In this document: positions 51,605 to 59,381 of the stretch, one piece after another
Numbering within the stretch: the stretch's first letter is position 1
Layout of the letters: every line of letters begins with the position of its first letter
Origin: Acidimicrobiia bacterium
GTDB taxonomy: Bacteria > Actinomycetota > Acidimicrobiia > Spongiisociales > ZC4RG35
Direction: 5' to 3'
Length of the DNA: 60,583 nt
Assembly: GCA_035281425.1 (NCBI GenBank)
Contig: DATEDX010000124.1
Span: 1-60,583 of the forward strand
Program-made: the position numbers and the translations under genes
The notes under the pieces: model-generated
Databases searched by the model: none
Told to the model about the DNA's origin: nothing
The model's input: the letters and a program-made list of their open reading frames with translations, nothing else

Positions 51605-52591
51605 TTAGCCGGAGACCAGGCGGGCCGTCGTGGTGCGGACCAGAACCCCGTTCCAGTACCAGCGGCCTTGGATGGTTTGGTCCGCACGGAGAGTGAGCTC
51701 GGCTCGCCAGCGGCGGGTGGCGACGTTGCCGCTCTCCGTCACCCCGAGGTGGGTCACCCCCACCAGTTGCCCGTCCACTCGCAGCTCGAAACGGGTCGAG
51801 CCGCCGGTGAAGACCGACTCCTCATTACCGAGGTAGGGGAGCACCTGGTACCAGCCTTCGGTGAGGCGGTAGCGAGCCTGGGCGGAGACCGTCACATTGG
51901 CCGAACAGGTCAACCCGTTCTTGGCGCAGTTGTAGTCAACATGGTTGAGAGGAAGGACCCGCACCACCCCCGCCAGCTCGTAGGCCCGCGCCAGGAAGGT
52001 GGCCATCTCCGCTCGGGTGATGTTGCGGTCGGGGCAGAAGCGGTCGTTGGCGGGTGGATTGCAGCCCAGGGTGATCCCGGCCCGGGCGATCCGGTTGATG
52101 TCCCCCTCGAAGGTCGAGTTGTTGTCGTCGACGAAGAAGTCCTGGTTAGTACCGGCCAGATCGAGGGCTCGGGCCAGGAAGGCCGCCATCTGCCCCCGGG
52201 TCACGGTGTCGTCAGGACAGAAGCGGCTATTGGTGGGTGGGTTGCAGCCACGGGTGATTTCGGCTGCAGCCAGGCGGTTGATGTCACCTTCGAAGATGGA
52301 CGACCCGTCGTCGCTGAAGAAGTCGACTCCGGTCGGTGACAACTCCTCGGCCCGGGCCAGGAAGGCGGCCATCTGTCCCCGGGTGACGTTGTCGTTGGGA
52401 CAGAACCGATTGTTGGTGGGGGGATTGCAGCCTTTGGCGATGCCCTGGGCGGCAATGGCATCGATGGCCGATTCGTGGACCGAGGTGTCGTCATCGATGA
52501 AGGCACCCCGCACCGCCAGAGCCCCGGCGGGGAGCGCCGCCCCGGCCAGCATCACCATCCCCGCCAAAAGTGTGAGAACCCGCCGCTTCAC
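51605..52591 (-). CDS. secreted protein: signal peptide, three SLH-like repeats, C-terminal beta-rich domain
   Basis: Signal peptide: MKRRVLTLLAGMVMLAGAALPAGA. Three repeats of F.DD..S.FE.DI..LAAA.IT.GCNPP.N.RFCP....TRGQMAAFLARA, paralogous to 20366-21856. Confidence 0.75.
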   Translation of the reverse strand: MKRRVLTLLAGMVMLAGAALPAGALAVRGAFIDDDTSVHESAIDAIAAQGIAKGCNPPTNNRFCPNDNVTRGQMAAFLARAEELSPTGVDFFSDDGSSIFEGDINRLAAAEITRGCNPPTNSRFCPDDTVTRGQMAAFLARALDLAGTNQDFFVDDNNSTFEGDINRIARAGITLGCNPPANDRFCPDRNITRAEMATFLARAYELAGVVRVLPLNHVDYNCAKNGLTCSANVTVSAQARYRLTEGWYQVLPYLGNEESVFTGGSTRFELRVDGQLVGVTHLGVTESGNVATRRWRAELTLRADQTIQGRWYWNGVLVRTTTARLVSG

Positions 52592-53700: not shown

Positions 53701-54411
53701 TCATTCGCCCTCCTGGGAAGGTAGAGGATTGTCGAGCAGGCTTCGGTCGCCAGGGAGAATCCCTGCCTGCCGCAACTCCTCCCCAGAGTCGCGGAGCCGT
53801 TCCCGGGTGGTGCGGCGCAGATCGCTCCGACCTGGCGAGTCGGCCAGGGCTCGGCGCATCAGATCCATCACCTGGGGCCAGCTGGCGGCCGAACCTTCCC
53901 CCACCGACACTCCCCGGCCGGCATCGATTAGTTGGAAGAAGGGAGTTCCCGGGACCCGAAAGGCATCCCAGGCATCCGTCGACATGAGGGTGGTGACAGT
54001 GGCCGGGGCCATCCGTCCCACCTCGGCCGGGCTTTCGCCCTCGCTCCCTTTGGTAACGATCACCGGGCGGATGTCGGAGGAGGGAAGGTCGGGGCGGCCG
54101 AGGCTCTCCCAAAAGGTGCGGCACGGGAGGCATCCGGTGGAGAGAAAGGCGAGGAGGACGTAGCCCCGCTGCCCGCTCAACGCCACCGACACCGTCCCCC
54201 CCGATGGGGTGGCGCCGGTGAGCTGAGCCAGGGGCACCGGTTGTCCGGCGATACCCCGTCTCACCGGGACGAGCGGAGCATTTCCTCGCGACTCTCCGGC
54301 GCCGAGGGCATCGAGGGTGCGGAGAATCTCGGCATGGGAGCGAAGCAGGCCTGCTACCAGCACCGCCAGCAGCAGGATCACGATCCCTTCGATGATCACC
54401 AATGGCAACAT
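53701..54411 (-). CDS. membrane-anchored thioredoxin-fold thiol:disulfide oxidoreductase (TlpA/MauD-like)
   Basis: From ATG 54411 (1 nt after the upstream stop): MLPLVIIEGIVILLLAVLVAGLL (TM anchor), then YVLLAFLSTGCLPCRTFW (CxxC). Confidence 0.7.
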   Translation of the reverse strand: MLPLVIIEGIVILLLAVLVAGLLRSHAEILRTLDALGAGESRGNAPLVPVRRGIAGQPVPLAQLTGATPSGGTVSVALSGQRGYVLLAFLSTGCLPCRTFWESLGRPDLPSSDIRPVIVTKGSEGESPAEVGRMAPATVTTLMSTDAWDAFRVPGTPFFQLIDAGRGVSVGEGSAASWPQVMDLMRRALADSPGRSDLRRTTRERLRDSGEELRQAGILPGDRSLLDNPLPSQEGE

Positions 54412-54412
54412 C

Positions 54413-55744
54413 TCATCGCTCCAGTCGGTGCCAGACGACCGGCCGGTCGCCCGTCTGGCCATGGGTAAAGGTGAGCAGGGTTCCCGACCCATCGACTTCG
54501 TTGGAAACCCTCCAGGTGCCGTCGTCGAACCGGCCCGGGGTGTCCACTCCATCGGCGTCCCAATCGCCCACCACCGGAATGTCCCCGGCGTCCCCGAAGG
54601 TGAAGTCGAAATCGGCGCTTCCTGCCGAAAGTGAGTTCCGCAGCAGCCACCGGGTGCCCCTCACCACTCCGTAGCCGTCGACTCCGTCGCCGTTCCAGTC
54701 GCCCACGACCGGAATGTCGCCGGGCTGGCAGAAACTGCAGGTGAAGTCGATGGCGGCGGTGCCCGGTGAGTTGTTGTTGCGTAGCAGCCAACGGGTTCCC
54801 CGCACCACCCCGATCGTCTCCACCCCCTCCCCGTTCCAGTCACCGACCACGGGGATGTCACCGGGGCTGCCGTAGGGGACGATGAGGTCGGGGTCGCCAG
54901 CTCCTTCGATCTGTCGCAGGTACCAGGTGGGGCCACTGCCAGAGATGCCGTGGCGGCTGCCCCGCACCACCCCCGCCGTGGCCACTCCCGCCCCGGTCCA
55001 ATCGGCGGCGAGGGGGGTGTCTTCGGCCAGTCCGTAGGTGAATTGGGTGACCGGGGCCGAGCTGGAGGTGCCTTCTTTGAGGAGCCAGGTGTTGCCCCTC
55101 ACCACCCCCGGCCGCGCCCGGTCGGCGCCCACCGAGGAGTCGGTGACCAGACAAGCTGCGAAGTGGGTGCGGGTGGCGTCTTCCCGGGCGTCTTCGTTGG
55201 TGCAGGTCGAATCCCATTCGAAGGGAGGGACACAGGTGACCACCCGGCAGATGATGGGGCCGATACAGTCGATCCACTGGTTGCACTGGCCGTAGCGGAA
55301 GCGGGTGCAACAGGTCCGCCAGTTGTTGCAGGTGTCGTCGTGGCAGTGACAATCGCAGTTGACGCAGCCGTTGCCGCAGGTGCCACTACCTCCGCAGCTA
55401 CACCCTCCGCAACTGGCCGGGTGACAGTCCATGAAATACCGGGAGCCTCCCCCGCAGAAGTCGTCGTCGCCTTCGGCCCGCCACCAGCCTCCCACCACCG
55501 ACCCGGGAGGGCAGGTGTTGGTGCCGTGAACCTTGCAGCACAACTCGGTCCAGGAGTTGCACCGGGAGTTGGTCGAACAGTCATCGGGCACCACCGCGGC
55601 GTAAGCCGTCACCGGCCGCAAGAGGTAGGTGAGGGGAGCGGTCATCACCGCCGAACCGGCAATGGCCATTCGGCGCAGGAATCCCCGGCGAGAGGTGCGG
55701 CTGGCCAGCGCCTTGCTGGCTGCTTCCACCAGACGGACGCTCAC
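54413..55744 (-). CDS. Tat-signal protein: 24-Cys MauA (methylamine dehydrogenase light chain)-like domain fused to about five FG-GAP/VCBS repeats
   Basis: Tat signal: SRRGFLRRMAIAGSAV...AYA. Then CNSWTELCCKVHGTNTCPPGSVVGGWW...FMDCH... and CSCGGSGTCGNGCVNCDCHCH. Repeats: GDIPVVGDWNG.GV...GVVRGTRWLLRN. GTGA overlap with the MauE-like stop. Confidence 0.75.
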   Translation of the reverse strand: MSVRLVEAASKALASRTSRRGFLRRMAIAGSAVMTAPLTYLLRPVTAYAAVVPDDCSTNSRCNSWTELCCKVHGTNTCPPGSVVGGWWRAEGDDDFCGGGSRYFMDCHPASCGGCSCGGSGTCGNGCVNCDCHCHDDTCNNWRTCCTRFRYGQCNQWIDCIGPIICRVVTCVPPFEWDSTCTNEDAREDATRTHFAACLVTDSSVGADRARPGVVRGNTWLLKEGTSSSAPVTQFTYGLAEDTPLAADWTGAGVATAGVVRGSRHGISGSGPTWYLRQIEGAGDPDLIVPYGSPGDIPVVGDWNGEGVETIGVVRGTRWLLRNNNSPGTAAIDFTCSFCQPGDIPVVGDWNGDGVDGYGVVRGTRWLLRNSLSAGSADFDFTFGDAGDIPVVGDWDADGVDTPGRFDDGTWRVSNEVDGSGTLLTFTHGQTGDRPVVWHRLER

Positions 55745-56259
55745 GTACTGGCGCTCCGGGCTCGCCTGGTCAACAAGGGGAGCCGGGTGAGGAGAAGAAC
55801 CAAGAGATAGGTGGCGAGACCCAGATAAAAGAGATAGGGGAGGCCGGCGGCCGGCTGCTGACCCAGCACCTCAGCCAGGTCCACCCCTCCCTGGGCGGCC
55901 AGCGCCAGGGCTGCCGCGGCGGCGGTGAGGTTGACCGTCAGGTGGAGAAGGGTGGGAGGGGTGTCGGCACGGCCGAAACACCCGCAGGACTGGAGGGGGA
56001 GGTGCCGGTAGAGGGCGATCCCGACGAACCCGGCGAAGGAGGCGTATAACAGCCCGACCGCGAGGACCCCGGCGACCATCCCCCAGAGTCCGGCGAGGGC
56101 CGCTCCCACCTCGATGAGTCCCAGCAGAAGTACCACCAAGGTCGAGGAGGGAAGACCGGCCGCGGCCAGGGCGCCCCGGGTCGGCTGCGGATCCCGGACT
56201 TTGGCTCCCCCGCTTAGTGCCAGGAGGGCAGCGGTGACGAAGAACCACCCCTCGAGCAT
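55741..56259 (-). CDS. MauE/DoxX-family redox-associated membrane protein
   Basis: From ATG 56259: MLEGWFFVTAALLALSGGAKVRDP...LQSCGCFG (the CGCFG motif typical of MauE). Four TM segments. Confidence 0.7.
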   Translation of the reverse strand: MLEGWFFVTAALLALSGGAKVRDPQPTRGALAAAGLPSSTLVVLLLGLIEVGAALAGLWGMVAGVLAVGLLYASFAGFVGIALYRHLPLQSCGCFGRADTPPTLLHLTVNLTAAAAALALAAQGGVDLAEVLGQQPAAGLPYLFYLGLATYLLVLLLTRLPLLTRRARSAST

Positions 56260-56308: not shown

Positions 56309-57796
56309 TTAGGTCCGGCGAACTGAGTAGTAGCGCGAGACGATCCGTCGCCGTCGACGCCGGTAGCGATTGCTGGCGCCGGCCAGCACATGTTCGACCG
56401 GCGGGCCTTGCCGGATCATCTCCCCGGTCACCTCCGAGCCGAGGTAAAGCGGCTCGACCGTCCCCGAGCTTTGGGACCACTCGGTCACGATCTGGACCGG
56501 CAACTGATCCGCTTTGTCGCCGTAGGTGGGGCGGCCCAACAGGCGGCGAAGACCATTGGTAACTCGGGGACCGAGGAGACGTTTGACGGCTTCCCGCCCA
56601 GCACTGGCCGTCAGGTGGGTGGCTTCCCGCAGGCTGCTCCCCGGCGCCGGTCGGAACGTAGCCGCCTCCTTCACCAGCAGGTCGGCGGTCTGGGCGGCCC
56701 CTCCCCTGAGGTTCTTCGGGGGTACCTCGGTGCAGGCCTCGATGAGGTCACGGCGTACCACCGGATCGGCCAGGGAGCTGGTCAGCGAGGCCAGCAGGTC
56801 GGGTTGGTCGGCCCGGGCCGTCAGGGCCAGACCGCGGTCCGCCAGCCATTGGGCTCGGGCCTCTTGGTCGTCGGTGAAGGTGACCGGGTTGGGCACAAAC
56901 AGGGTGGGAAGAGCGGCGGGAATGAATTCGTGGACGGCGTTGTACCCGGCGGCGCTGATCACGGCATCGAAGGCAGCCAGGTAGCGAACCAGGGGATAGA
57001 CCCCCTTCAGTTCGACGATCCGCTCCGGGTCGAGCACCGGCACTCCCTGGAGAGCGATGCTGGCCTTAGTGAGGCAGATCTGCCAGCGTGGGTCGGAGAG
57101 CAAGGTGCGAAGGACCACGGTGGCCGGTTCCGTGATGTCGCCCAGCCGTCCCGAGCCGAGAGTGACCAGCACGGTGAGGCGCTCGGGGTCGAGTCCCAGA
57201 GCCCGGGCGGCTTCCTCGCGGGGGAGAGGCTCGACGACGTCGAGCATGGTCACCGGCGACACCTTGACGGCATCGGTGAGGCCGGCGGTGGCGCCTCGAT
57301 CGGCCTCCGCCGCCAAGTCCCCAGGCTCGATGATCAGATCGAAGACCTCGCCCCGACCCAACCGGTCGCGGTGTTCGCCCGGCCGCCACAAACCCCTTCG
57401 CATCCAGGTGAAGTGGACCCGGGGCAGGCGTGGCCGGGCCCGTATAAGTCCCGGGTAGGGCGCCACCCCGTCGAAGAGCAGCGCTTCGGCCTTGGTCTCC
57501 TTGGCGATCGCCACCAGTCGGTCGCACAGATAGGAATGCCAATGGGCACCTTTCACCCATTGCCGGTCGGACCCGGGGCAATATTCACCAGGAACTTCTC
57601 CGATCACCGCCGGCAGACCCAGGGAGAGGGAGAAGAGGGTGGAGGTGGCCCGCTCCTGACCGGCCATAGCGATGGCGAGTTGACGGGTGAGGTGTCCCAT
57701 GCCCCAGCCGTTGCTGGTCACGAGCAGCAGACGGGTCTTGTCCTCACTGCCCGGCATGCGACCGCTCATCACTGGCCCTTCCGTAGAATTGTCCAC
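56309..57796 (-). CDS. GT-B glycosyltransferase (GT28/MurG-like C-terminal domain) with C-terminal extension
   Basis: LLLVTSNGWGMGHLTRQLAIA; VLVTLGSGRLGD...YLAAFDAVISAAGYNAVHEFIPAALPTLFVPN. The start is uncertain (GTG 57796, ATG 57769 or ATG 57757). Confidence 0.7.
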   Translation of the reverse strand: MDNSTEGPVMSGRMPGSEDKTRLLLVTSNGWGMGHLTRQLAIAMAGQERATSTLFSLSLGLPAVIGEVPGEYCPGSDRQWVKGAHWHSYLCDRLVAIAKETKAEALLFDGVAPYPGLIRARPRLPRVHFTWMRRGLWRPGEHRDRLGRGEVFDLIIEPGDLAAEADRGATAGLTDAVKVSPVTMLDVVEPLPREEAARALGLDPERLTVLVTLGSGRLGDITEPATVVLRTLLSDPRWQICLTKASIALQGVPVLDPERIVELKGVYPLVRYLAAFDAVISAAGYNAVHEFIPAALPTLFVPNPVTFTDDQEARAQWLADRGLALTARADQPDLLASLTSSLADPVVRRDLIEACTEVPPKNLRGGAAQTADLLVKEAATFRPAPGSSLREATHLTASAGREAVKRLLGPRVTNGLRRLLGRPTYGDKADQLPVQIVTEWSQSSGTVEPLYLGSEVTGEMIRQGPPVEHVLAGASNRYRRRRRRIVSRYYSVRRT

Positions 57797-57798
57797 CC

Positions 57799-58620
57799 AT
57801 GACCCTCCCCGCCCCTGCTCCGGTCTATTACTCCCGGCGCGTCCGCCTCTACCTGGCGGACCTGTGGAGCAGGCGGGATTTTGCCTGGTTCCTGGCCATG
57901 GGCAACGTCAAAGCTCGCAACGCCTCCACCGCCCTCGGGCTCCTGTGGTGGGTGATCAACCCCTTGCTGCTCGGATTGGTCTACTACTTCGTCTTCGGGA
58001 TCCTCTTTGAGAGTGCCCGTGACATCTCCTATCTGCTCACCGGGATGTTCGTCTTCCACTTCACCAGCCAGGCGATGAGCGGCGGCGCCAACAGCATCCT
58101 CCAGAACTCGAAGCTCCTCGCCAATCTCAAATTCCCCCGTCTGATCCTGCCCATCTCCAACCTGATCGAGGCCACGGTCGGCTTCCTCGCTTCCTTGGTG
58201 ATCCTCTACGCCATCGCCATTCCGTTCAGCGGCATCTTTCCCGGCCCCTCCATCGTGTTGTTGTTGATCGCCTTACCGCTGCAGTTGATGTTCAACCTAG
58301 GGCTGGCCGCCATCACCGCCCGGATGGCGGTCCCCTTCCGTGACATCAACAACCTGCTGCCCTACGTCAACCGGGTCTGGCTTTACCTTTCGCCCATCAT
58401 CTGGCCGCTTGAGTTCCTCAGCCGGATGTCTCCCACCGTGCAGACCATCGCTGAGATCAATCCCATGTTCCCCATGATCGAGGTGTACCGAGCGGCCCTG
58501 CTTGGTTATCCCCTTGACCTCACCCATCTGGCCTGGTTCGCCTTCTGGGCGGTGGCGGTTCTCATCGTCGGGATCGCCCTCTTCGTCAAGTACGAGGGAC
58601 AGATCGTGAGGTACCTGTGA
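57799..58620 (+). CDS. ABC-2-type polysaccharide/teichoic-acid exporter permease (Wzm/TagG-like)
   Basis: LWSRRDFAWFLAMGNVKARNASTALGLLWWVINPLL, six TM segments, and PMFPMIEVYR near the C-terminus. Confidence 0.85.
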   Translation: MTLPAPAPVYYSRRVRLYLADLWSRRDFAWFLAMGNVKARNASTALGLLWWVINPLLLGLVYYFVFGILFESARDISYLLTGMFVFHFTSQAMSGGANSILQNSKLLANLKFPRLILPISNLIEATVGFLASLVILYAIAIPFSGIFPGPSIVLLLIALPLQLMFNLGLAAITARMAVPFRDINNLLPYVNRVWLYLSPIIWPLEFLSRMSPTVQTIAEINPMFPMIEVYRAALLGYPLDLTHLAWFAFWAVAVLIVGIALFVKYEGQIVRYL

Positions 58621-59381
58621 GCCGTCCCGCTCTCTACGTCGAGAACCTCAGCGTCCGCTTCCGGCCCTACATCGACCGCAAGCCCACCTTGCGCAAGTCG
58701 ATCAACCGCTTCCGGGCCCGGGAACAGGTGGAGGTGGTCGCTCTCGACAACGTCTCTTTCCAGGTGGCGAAGGGCGAAGCCTTCGGGATCATCGGTCGCA
58801 ACGGGGCCGGCAAGAGCACTCTGCTCAGATGCCTGGCCGGCACCCTCCGCCCCAACTCCGGGAAGGTGGTGATCAACGGCCGCACCTCCACCCTCCTCCA
58901 GCTGGGGGTGGGCTTCAACCCCGAGCTGTCCGGGCGCCGCAACGTTTACCTGGGAGGTCTCGCCGCCGGCCTCCGCAAGAGACAGATCGACGAGCTCTAC
59001 GACAGCATCGTTGAATACGCCGAATTGGAGGACGCCATCAATCGTCCCCTGAAGACCTACTCCTCGGGGATGTTCTCTCGCCTCGCCTTTTCGGTGGGCA
59101 TGCACCTCGACCCCGACATCCTGCTGCTGGACGAGGTGCTAGCGGTGGGGGATCTCGGTTTTCGGGACAAGAGCATGCAATCGATGCAGGACCTGCTCGA
59201 TCGCAGCGGCACCATCGTTTTCGTGTCTCACAGTCTCGGCAGTGTCAAAGACTTCTGCGATCATGCGATCTGGCTTGAGCAGGGGCGTGTCCGGGAAGCG
59301 GGTCAGGCCGCGGAAGTCGTAGACGCCTATGAGGCGCACTCGAGATCCAAGAAGACCGAGGTGAAGGTCAACAATAAGTGA
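58617..59381 (+). CDS. ABC-type polysaccharide/teichoic-acid exporter ATP-binding protein (Wzt/TagH-like)
   Basis: Walker A: GRNGAGKSTLL. Signature: YSSGMFSRLAFS. Walker B: ILLLDEVLAVGD. The start overlaps the permease stop. Confidence 0.9.
   Translation: MSRPALYVENLSVRFRPYIDRKPTLRKSINRFRAREQVEVVALDNVSFQVAKGEAFGIIGRNGAGKSTLLRCLAGTLRPNSGKVVINGRTSTLLQLGVGFNPELSGRRNVYLGGLAAGLRKRQIDELYDSIVEYAELEDAINRPLKTYSSGMFSRLAFSVGMHLDPDILLLDEVLAVGDLGFRDKSMQSMQDLLDRSGTIVFVSHSLGSVKDFCDHAIWLEQGRVREAGQAAEVVDAYEAHSRSKKTEVKVNNK

Follow-up and report, generated by a model that had tools for sequence, protein, structure and literature searches.

The closest described relative of the locus analysed here is the mauFBEDACJGMN cluster of Paracoccus denitrificans and Methylobacterium, which encodes MauE with its CGCF motif, a CxxC protein anchored by a transmembrane (TM) segment (MauD), a polytopic MauF and a Cys-rich client, MauA. 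MauE and MauD are reported to be necessary for the maturation of methylamine dehydrogenase (MADH) in work cited in PMC7794033 and in bioRxiv 10.64898/2026.03.05.709764, and MauE outside mau clusters has already been reported to be common (bioRxiv 10.64898/2026.03.05.709764; PMC7794033). MauE was shown to be DsbB-like only in a 2026 preprint from the Ruddock laboratory, in which homologues from two phyla replaced DsbB in Escherichia coli through a CXC active site and quinone coupling was proposed (bioRxiv 10.64898/2026.03.05.709764). In this study, we analysed a 60,583-nt (60.6-kb) stretch of contig DATEDX010000124.1 from an Acidimicrobiia bacterium, which is referred to in its entirety as the window. 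Its minus strand was found to carry a cassette of genes designated E (MauE-like), A (the cargo), D (CxxC protein), F (190 residues), X (154 residues) and S (SLH). On sequence comparison, distant homology links E to MauE, D to MauD, F to MauF and, over the leader and the opening ~35 residues of the mature chain, the cargo to MauA. This leads us to read the cassette as a sibling of the maturation module of the MADH small subunit, one that would work without the dehydrogenase.

A mau-type gene set without a dehydrogenase

The plasmid-borne cluster of P. denitrificans, comprising mauR, mauF, mauB, mauE, mauD, mauA, amicyanin, mauJ, mauG, mauM (annotated napG) and mauN (annotated napH), was used as the reference. 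An alignment of the Cys-rich domain of the cargo, used for a pattern scan against 185,579 species genomes, returned at least 600 stretches, of which 590 were confirmed by tblastn. The best 80 of the at least 590 confirmed cassette loci were fetched and, together with four loci obtained by exact protein look-up (L001-L004, one of which matches the window's own sequence), they form the set of 84 loci used throughout. Family alignments from these loci were compared with ten Paracoccus Mau proteins (mauR excluded) using hhalign. E, the cargo, D and F each found their own counterpart as best match in BLASTP against the same ten proteins, and all 36 off-target pairs of window family and Mau protein stayed below 4% probability in hhalign.

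With regard to E, the Pfam model PF07291 matched with an E-value of 3.4e-14 and 53.7 bits (cut-off 27) over positions 10-126 of 128, and the family profile aligned with Paracoccus MauE at 95.1% probability (E 3e-8, 112 columns). The protein exhibits several hydrophobic segments in the hydropathy profile and a CGCFG motif at residues 92-96. Among its orthologues, C92 is retained in 79 of 81, C94 in 80, F95 in 73, K20 in 78 and E50 in 77, and the window residues align with K29, E62 and C105-G-C107-F of Paracoccus MauE. The motif of the MauE family, a CXC followed by FG together with a conserved Lys and a conserved Glu, has been defined previously (bioRxiv 10.64898/2026.03.05.709764). The Pfam score, the conserved residues and the hydrophobic segments bear out the preliminary description of this DNA, which had called the first gene MauE-like.

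D exhibits a single N-terminal TM segment (residues 4-22), a CLPC motif at residues 94-97 and a VPGTPFF cis-Pro region. It matched Paracoccus MauD in BLASTP (E 2e-5), and the family profiles aligned at 95.5% probability (E 1.4e-8) over 102 columns that include the CxxC and the cis-Pro region, with the CxxC placed on CPVC and VPxTPYF on VGKIPYG. C94, C97 and P157 are invariant in the orthologues. Two further conserved elements of D, a near-invariant juxtamembrane RSHAEILR and a C-terminal tail, (L)xxAGIxPGDPSLY, at window residues ~213-225, are absent from Paracoccus MauD.

F, which has about five hydrophobic segments and no Cys, matched Paracoccus MauF in BLASTP (E 2e-4). The family profile aligned with MauF at 97.5% probability (E 6.6e-12, 145 columns), residues 3-147 of F corresponding to 82-234 of MauF, so that F lacks the first ~80 residues of MauF as well as its Cys. 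Paracoccus MauF itself matched no Pfam family in the copy of Pfam searched, and we know of no defined role for this protein. A MauF-like gene is therefore the next one in the operon, where mauF had initially been listed as absent from the window.

In contrast, tblastn with Paracoccus MauB, MauG, amicyanin, MauJ, MauM and MauN gave no match at E <= 1e-3 in the window or in the 84 loci. Among the stop-to-stop frames of at least 100 codons in the window, none carries two CxxCH motifs, and the Pfam annotation of the 10 kb on either side of the cassette in three genomes contains no dehydrogenase heavy chain, di-haem peroxidase or cupredoxin. The reported absence of mauB, mauG and amicyanin from the window is upheld by these searches, and no canonical mauB or mauG was found in the same operon in any of the 84 loci. 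The cassette also differs from the mau cluster in its gene order (E-A-D-F as opposed to F-B-E-D-A), in the addition of X and in its host, a Gram-positive class instead of a proteobacterial methylotroph. Its client contains 24-26 Cys whereas MauA contains 12, diverges fully from MauA after ~35 mature residues and, unlike MauA, is fused to propeller or wall-binding modules.

The start of the cargo precursor is related to that of MauA

The cargo is a protein of 443 residues with 26 Cys, of which 24 are located within residues 56-198 and two in the C-terminal propeller. It had been described as a twin-arginine protein with 24 Cys; the TSRRGFLRR core is indeed present, whereas the figure of 24 applies to the N-terminal domain only. 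The leader is unusually conserved, R19-R25 being invariant in 28 orthologues. It scores 14.9 bits against the NCBIfam model TAT_signal_seq (TIGR01409), below the cut-off of 16.7, and several homologues are named 'twin-arginine translocation signal domain-containing protein' by NCBI. The MauA precursor shares with the cargo a long and unusual leader of the twin-arginine translocation (Tat) type, with an n-region helix and TSRRxF, and mature MauA shares the opening C-x5-C..DG..CC..G..N-CPPG..W.

When 110 cargo-family N-termini were compared with ~110 MauA homologues by hhalign, a probability of 97.4% and an E-value of 1e-11 were obtained. The alignment is collinear (cargo residues 3-85 with MauA 8-110) and runs through the leader, C-x5-C, DG, CC/C.C, G..N and CPPG. 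Nevertheless, Tat leaders of E. coli and Bacillus subtilis scored 13-23 against the cargo-family leader, and the MauA leader profile matched TorA with an E-value of 1.7e-7. The twin-arginine core is thus generic and constitutes no evidence of homology between the cargo and MauA. The E-value of 1e-11 was therefore not taken as decisive, and we split the comparison into the n-region and the mature part and set each against a column-shuffle null. The 14 residues preceding the twin-arginine core (LVEAASKALASR in the cargo, MVEKLSRRVAGQ in MauA) scored 17.4 on their own, the null being 5.3±1.5 with a maximum of 12.9 (0 of 150 shuffles reached the real score; z ~7.8). The mature parts alone scored 22.8, a weak match that nevertheless exceeds its null of 13.4±2.6 and a maximum of 21.3 (0 of 120; z ~3.6).

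We conclude from these scores that the cargo inherited its leader and the opening ~35 residues of its mature chain from the MauA lineage. The remainder of the Cys domain has a structure of another kind, without a counterpart so far, and the cargo stands outside the MADH light-chain family: it has no match to PF02975, and the cargo-family hidden Markov model (HMM) scored -3.7 against MauA in hmmsearch. The designation of the second protein as MauA-like can consequently be retained for the n-region and the opening ~35 residues of the mature part, which exceed their shuffle nulls, but not with regard to PF02975, the PDB or the fold.

The Cys-rich domain and a possible cofactor site

The domain is characterised by the signature C-x5-C..G..FCC..G.N.CPPG....GWW[KR]A[DE]....C....RYY.DC ... 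FRYGQC ... CRVV.C.PPW ... C. N76, P79, G86, W87, W88, D106, F149-R-Y-G152 and R167 were kept in 100% of 129 diverse members, which suggests that the invariant polar residues form a specific binding or catalytic site. The number of Cys is even in 110 of the 129 domains, a parity to be expected if every one of them takes part in a disulfide. No relative was found in Pfam, NCBIfam or the PDB, using the single sequence in phmmer and two profiles against the PDB. In contrast, a profile search of 1.84 billion cluster representatives retrieved 445 clusters (50% identity) at E <= 1e-3 and 338 at E <= 1e-10, the named members being 'hypothetical proteins' of Acidimicrobiia. In 135 of 149 fetched representatives, a leader precedes the domain and the latter begins no later than residue ~90; the proteins are 187 to 1137 residues long. 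In a few relatives (among P0133, P0187, P0151, P0123 and P0268) it begins at residue 150-230 and not at ~50.

The AlphaFold2 (AF2) model obtained with 28 close orthologues had a predicted local distance difference test (pLDDT) score below 50 in this domain, while a diverse 59-sequence domain alignment gave a pLDDT of 88.2 and a predicted template modelling score of 0.83. Foldseek found no neighbour of the latter model in the PDB (best E-value 4.3). A MauA-like fold thus found no support, no MADH light chain being listed among the matches. A cystine knot, as proposed in the preliminary description, was discarded, the sole such match being Gremlin at an E-value of 1.9, which is noise.

The relationship to MauA raises the question of whether the cargo could be a quinoprotein-like enzyme. 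It would then be a wall-tethered oxidoreductase with a cofactor resembling tryptophan tryptophylquinone (TTQ) or cysteine tryptophylquinone (CTQ), or another cross-linked cofactor, formed at GWW without MauG. The enzyme would rely on E, D, F and X for maturation and act on an amine or another compound. The homology of the leader and N-terminal mature region to MauA is in line with this possibility, as is the predicted Tat export, which is typical of cofactor proteins. GWW, RYY.DC and FRYGQC are kept in 95-100% of the 129 members, which is more than a pure scaffold needs. In a permissive alignment, which is of low confidence past CPPG, W87 falls on a TTQ Trp (SWV) and D106 on the Asp of RDCC. 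The invariant GWW may thus match the first residue of the TTQ pair, beta-Trp57 and beta-Trp108. Furthermore, the first hydroxylation of the TTQ Trp is independent of MauG, and we know of no catalyst that has been identified for this step. Nevertheless, W157, which aligns with Trp108, is variable in the cargo family, so that the second Trp of TTQ is not conserved. The searches that we ran revealed no gene for MauG, a flavin mono-oxygenase or a radical-SAM enzyme in the cassette or the 84 loci, and the lack of a frame with two CxxCH motifs in the window points in the same direction. The same is true of the failure of PF02975 and of a confident model to find MADH light chains, and the even Cys count opposes a Cys-Trp cross-link, which would use up one Cys. 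We therefore consider a quinoprotein distinctly unlikely. It is just as doubtful that the Cys module represents a new extracytoplasmic catalytic or cofactor domain of the MauA lineage, tethered to the actinobacterial wall, with a Trp-derived or other cross-linked redox cofactor at GWW / RYY-DC / FRYGQC and matured only by MauE, MauD, MauF and X, without MauG. If this were true, the cassette would be a minimal natural system in which to learn the roles of MauE, MauD and MauF, including the first step of TTQ-type Trp modification.

The cassette is conserved across Acidimicrobiia

HMMs built from the window proteins were run on all open reading frames (ORFs) of the 84 loci (Table 1, last column). 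The order E-A-D-(F)-X-(S) was found to be near-universal, being shared by nearly all of the 80 loci that were fetched, and many of the loci that depart from it lie on short contigs, which may be incomplete. Given this shared order, the recurrence of the arrangement is far beyond chance. Nearly all fetched loci are labelled Acidimicrobiia or lower taxa thereof, such as Microthrixaceae, Iamia-type bins, Rhabdothermincola and Aquihabitans. Two other genomes, on contigs of 2.4 Mb and 3.5 Mb, carry the same six genes in the same order within wholly different flanking genes. The neighbourhood survey that had been called for in advance thus shows that the first three genes are kept together in related loci, and that the conserved unit is larger than this trio. 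The same-strand unit had been thought to end at position 53701 after three genes; it comprises six, and the additional three are syntenic elsewhere.

This conservation also bears on whether E and D serve the cargo in particular. They could instead be the housekeeping disulfide pair of Acidimicrobiia, merely located beside an abundant Cys-rich substrate, in which case the cassette would not be dedicated. About 90% of MauE-bearing species lack MauA, and MauE has been argued to be a generalist (bioRxiv 10.64898/2026.03.05.709764). In line with this reading, S and other SLH proteins also hold paired Cys. The generalist pathway of the preprint and the cassette share the CXC-FG site, the conserved Lys and Glu, a thioredoxin-fold partner and a location outside any mau cluster (bioRxiv 10.64898/2026.03.05.709764). 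The generalist MauE is free-standing, however, whereas the MauE of the cassette is translationally coupled to one client and travels with D, F and X, which argues for a dedicated role. Synteny and coupling are strict even though the Cys domains are only ~47-70% identical and the flanks vary. A mau counterpart was found for each of E, D, F and the cargo leader, as expected for a co-inherited module. In addition, among 100 relatives that were scanned, two match Pfam MauE as well as the Cys domain, and tandem cargo-like ORFs (paralogues or fragments) share one set of E and D in two loci. For these reasons, we regard a housekeeping role as unlikely.

The two relatives that match MauE, and those in which the Cys domain begins late, may be real fusions of MauE and cargo or may result from gene calling across the 4-nt overlap. 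The tandem arrangements (EAAADD... in L016 and EAAADXS in L030) consist of two or three cargo-like ORF matches beside a single MauE, some of them short. One accessory set may consequently serve several cargo clients.

Proposed mechanism

We consider it probable that the genes form a dedicated, Acidimicrobiia-wide cassette that exports and oxidatively folds one cell-envelope client, with a domain of ~145 residues and ~12 disulfides. The cargo would be synthesised behind a Tat leader of the MauA type and leave the cytoplasm by the Tat route, possibly with its propeller already folded; until then, X may keep hold of the leader or of the Cys domain in its reduced form. Once outside the membrane, the cargo would have its disulfides introduced and/or shuffled by the anchored MauD-like CLPC protein. 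E is proposed to be a DsbB-like thiol oxidase which, through its CGC motif, the Lys in TM1 and the Glu in TM2, would re-oxidise the MauD-like protein and hand the electrons on to the quinone pool, in the manner of DsbB acting on DsbA. The Cys-less MauF-like protein could assist in some non-thiol way. Finally, the lectin-like propeller would hold the mature cargo at the wall, possibly via the co-encoded SLH protein, a task that fused LGFP, CWB2 or SLH modules would perform in relatives. We favour this mechanism because MauE homologues can replace DsbB and because of the anatomy of the cassette. The proposed logic, a quinone-linked membrane oxidase that re-oxidises a CxxC carrier of exported clients, is that of the DsbB-DsbA and VKOR-thioredoxin pairs. 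Nevertheless, the membrane components are non-homologous, and the site in the cassette is a CXC and not CXXC pairs. The carrier is membrane-anchored, closer to TlpA and MauD than to DsbA and, unlike in DsbB-DsbA and VKOR systems, encoded with its client.

Several observations weigh against a dedicated oxidative cassette. Tat normally transports folded proteins, and export by this route is awkward for a domain whose 12 disulfides would have to form outside the cytoplasm. F is devoid of Cys and X has no match in Pfam, the PDB or the Mau proteins, which leaves two of the five core genes unexplained. MauE and MauD might serve the whole secretome and not this client alone. D matched no curated Pfam or NCBIfam model at E <= 0.1, thioredoxin included, and only 2 of 17 orthologues reach Thioredoxin_2 (E 0.029). 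Against the PDB, the thioredoxin-fold matches of the D family were non-significant and mixed with PTP1B noise. The residues following its TM segment are basic, which bears on its putative orientation. The original view of the third protein as a TM-anchored, CLPC-containing MauD-like thioredoxin is therefore sustained by the MauD alignment, the TM segment and the CLPC, but not by any curated thioredoxin model.

The thiol chemistry could also run in the opposite direction. In such a pathway, of reduction or isomerisation, D would resemble TlpA, ResA or CcmG in keeping selected cargo Cys reduced, for metal or cofactor binding, or in shuffling disulfides, and a DsbD_2-like F and/or MauE would carry reducing power across the membrane. 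F does show a weak match to DsbD_2 (PF13386; E 4.6e-4, below the cut-off), its only one among the curated Pfam and NCBIfam models, and D aligns with Paracoccus MauD, which itself matches Pfam AhpC-TSA, Thioredoxin_2 and Redoxin. An earlier suggestion of reductase activity for MauE is cited in bioRxiv 10.64898/2026.03.05.709764. However, the lack of any Cys in F precludes a thiol-disulfide relay of the CcdA or DsbD kind, complementation of dsbB by MauE homologues implies an oxidative role, and the even number of Cys points to a product that has all of them in disulfides. A reductive pathway is thus highly unlikely, and we retain export and oxidative folding of a dedicated client as our interpretation. 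With regard to the preliminary description as a whole, its notion of orphan mau accessory genes around a different cargo stands, whereas the three-gene extent, the absence of mauF and the Cys-knot do not.

Wall-binding partners of the Cys domain

The C-terminal half of the cargo contains five GDxPVVGDWNGDG...GVVRG..W.LRN repeats, which AF2 folds, mostly with a pLDDT above 90, into 20 strands forming five sets of four, that is, five four-stranded blades. The best PDB matches in Foldseek were the fungal FG-GAP N-acetylglucosamine lectins AAL-2 (Agrocybe aegerita) and PVL (Psathyrella velutina), with E-values of 2.4e-5 to 1.9e-4. These lectins share loop repeats of the D-x-N-x-D-G type with the cargo propeller, but they have seven blades and not five, the identity is 14-18% and the TM-scores are ~0.3. 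None of the Pfam models FG-GAP, FG-GAP_3 and VCBS matched the window propeller at E <= 0.1, while among 100 relatives FG-GAP_3 matched five and FG-GAP one. The early label of FG-GAP protein is accordingly appropriate by fold and for some relatives, but not by Pfam for the window protein.

In the downstream parts of the same 100 relatives, we found LGFP repeats (28), CW_binding_2 (CWB2; 4), SLH (4), DUF4214 (3) and tectonin (1), among others; judging from these matches, the C-terminal partners of the Cys domain appear to be mostly wall- or glycan-binding modules. S matches Pfam SLH in three stretches (E 2.1e-13), and its ~110-residue C-terminal domain has no match. Loci with S hold 42 of 55 propeller-type cargo ORFs and 5 of 37 other cargo ORFs, a co-occurrence that is compatible with a pairing of propeller and SLH protein or, equally, with shared locus ancestry. 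Each SLH-like repeat of S carries a fixed Cys pair (GCNPPxNxRFCP), and for this reason S is probably a disulfide-bonded client as well.

The domain architecture also speaks to the possibility that the cargo is a secreted Cys-rich toxin, a bacteriocin or a product akin to ribosomally made peptides that are modified after translation (RiPPs), as in candidate clusters of Streptomyces that contain MauE. In these clusters, decRiPPter found mauE, and once also mauD, beside genes for predicted short precursors with at least eight Cys, in Actinomycetota without other mau genes (PMC7794033). The cassette shares this setting, but its product is a Tat-type protein of 443 residues with two domains, one of them the 145-residue Cys domain, a confidently modelled propeller and wall-binding partners, and it is accompanied by MauF-like, X and SLH genes. 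Moreover, the searches that we ran detected no gene for a protease, for immunity or for export in the conserved core, and the family is conserved class-wide, unlike accessory toxins. A toxin or RiPP is hence extremely improbable.

X, an orphan family

X has no hydrophobic segment and is thus probably cytoplasmic. It found no match in Pfam, NCBIfam, the PDB or the Paracoccus Mau proteins; however, more than 3300 homologues of ~150 residues exist, all named ones being hypothetical proteins. The start of the family is conserved as a strand, 'G.SV.LP.GWEG', which we presume, as a guess with no Pfam or PDB match behind it, to resemble the chaperone-type domains of PsbP, DcrB and DUF1795 (EagR).

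Anatomy of the locus

The features of the cassette are listed in Table 1. E starts with an ATG at 56259, and its 172-residue form agrees with the public gene call. The translational coupling of the first three genes, one of the initial claims, was read directly from the sequence: the stop of E and the start of the cargo overlap in a GTGA at 55741-55744, and the cargo and D are joined by TGA-g-ATG, with a single-base gap at 54412. On the same strand, F follows D after 74 nt and X follows F after 1 nt, and the operon ends with S, which shares 4 nt with X. Scans for promoters and terminators returned scores no better than those of shuffled sequences. The whole window (60-68% G+C) contains no tRNA or tmRNA genes and no Rfam families at the gathering score.

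Table 1. Features of the cassette in the window and number of loci with an HMM match to each protein
Feature	Positions	Strand	Basis	Loci with a match (of 84)
E, MauE-family polytopic membrane protein, 172 residues	55741..56259	minus	Pfam PF07291, CGCFG	79
Cargo leader, residues 1-49	55598..55744	minus	n-region helix LVEAASKALASR, TSRRGFLRR core, h-region, AYA cleavage-type site	
Cargo N-terminal Cys-rich domain, residues 56-198, 24 Cys	55151..55579	minus	conserved signature, AF2 model	
Cargo C-terminal five-bladed beta-propeller, residues 207-443	54416..55126	minus	AF2 and Foldseek, FG-GAP-like, lectin-like	
D, MauD-like membrane-anchored thioredoxin-fold protein, 236 residues	53701..54411	minus	BLASTP, hhalign, CLPC	81
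F, MauF-like polytopic membrane protein, 190 residues	53054..53626	minus	BLASTP, hhalign	54
X, orphan-family protein, 154 residues, without hydrophobic segment	52588..53052	minus	synteny in loci	76, always after D/F
S, secreted protein, three SLH repeats, 328 residues, 8 Cys	51605..52591	minus	Pfam SLH	41

Directly upstream of the cassette (region 56309-59381), and separated from the mauE-like gene by 49 nt, a gene on the same strand encodes a 495-residue protein with a GT28 / MurG-like C-terminal glycosyltransferase domain. Beyond it lies a divergent pair of ORFs (57799-58620 and 58617-59381) which, from their own sequences alone, resemble an ABC-2-type permease and an ATP-binding protein. 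This set of neighbours is not kept in the two other genomes that were examined.

Significance

Orphan MauE, and MauE and MauD beside Cys-rich products, are already in the literature; our headline finding is hence not new in kind, and the mechanism that we propose is an extension of known chemistry. Our literature search returned nothing describing this cassette in Acidimicrobiia. What is new is that the E-A-D-F quartet, with a MauF-like gene and a MauA-type precursor, persists without a dehydrogenase. The client is also new: it represents a large domain family that spans the class, is absent from Pfam, has no structural neighbour and shows strong conservation of a polar signature. This domain is modular and joined to differing wall-binding domains. 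In addition, the cassette is found with a member of the orphan X family in 76 of the 84 loci.

As E, D, F and a MauA-type precursor are kept in the absence of the dehydrogenase, MauG and amicyanin, the cassette separates the export and oxidative folding of the small subunit from TTQ chemistry. This suggests that the mau maturation genes make up a module for client-specific folding that is older and can be reused. Were the Cys domain to carry a cofactor, Trp-derived or other, the interest of the system would rise considerably. As the Cys domain is joined to wall-binding modules, the client is probably a major component, hitherto unstudied, of the cell envelope of Acidimicrobiia, a class that includes Microthrix and abundant soil and marine lineages.

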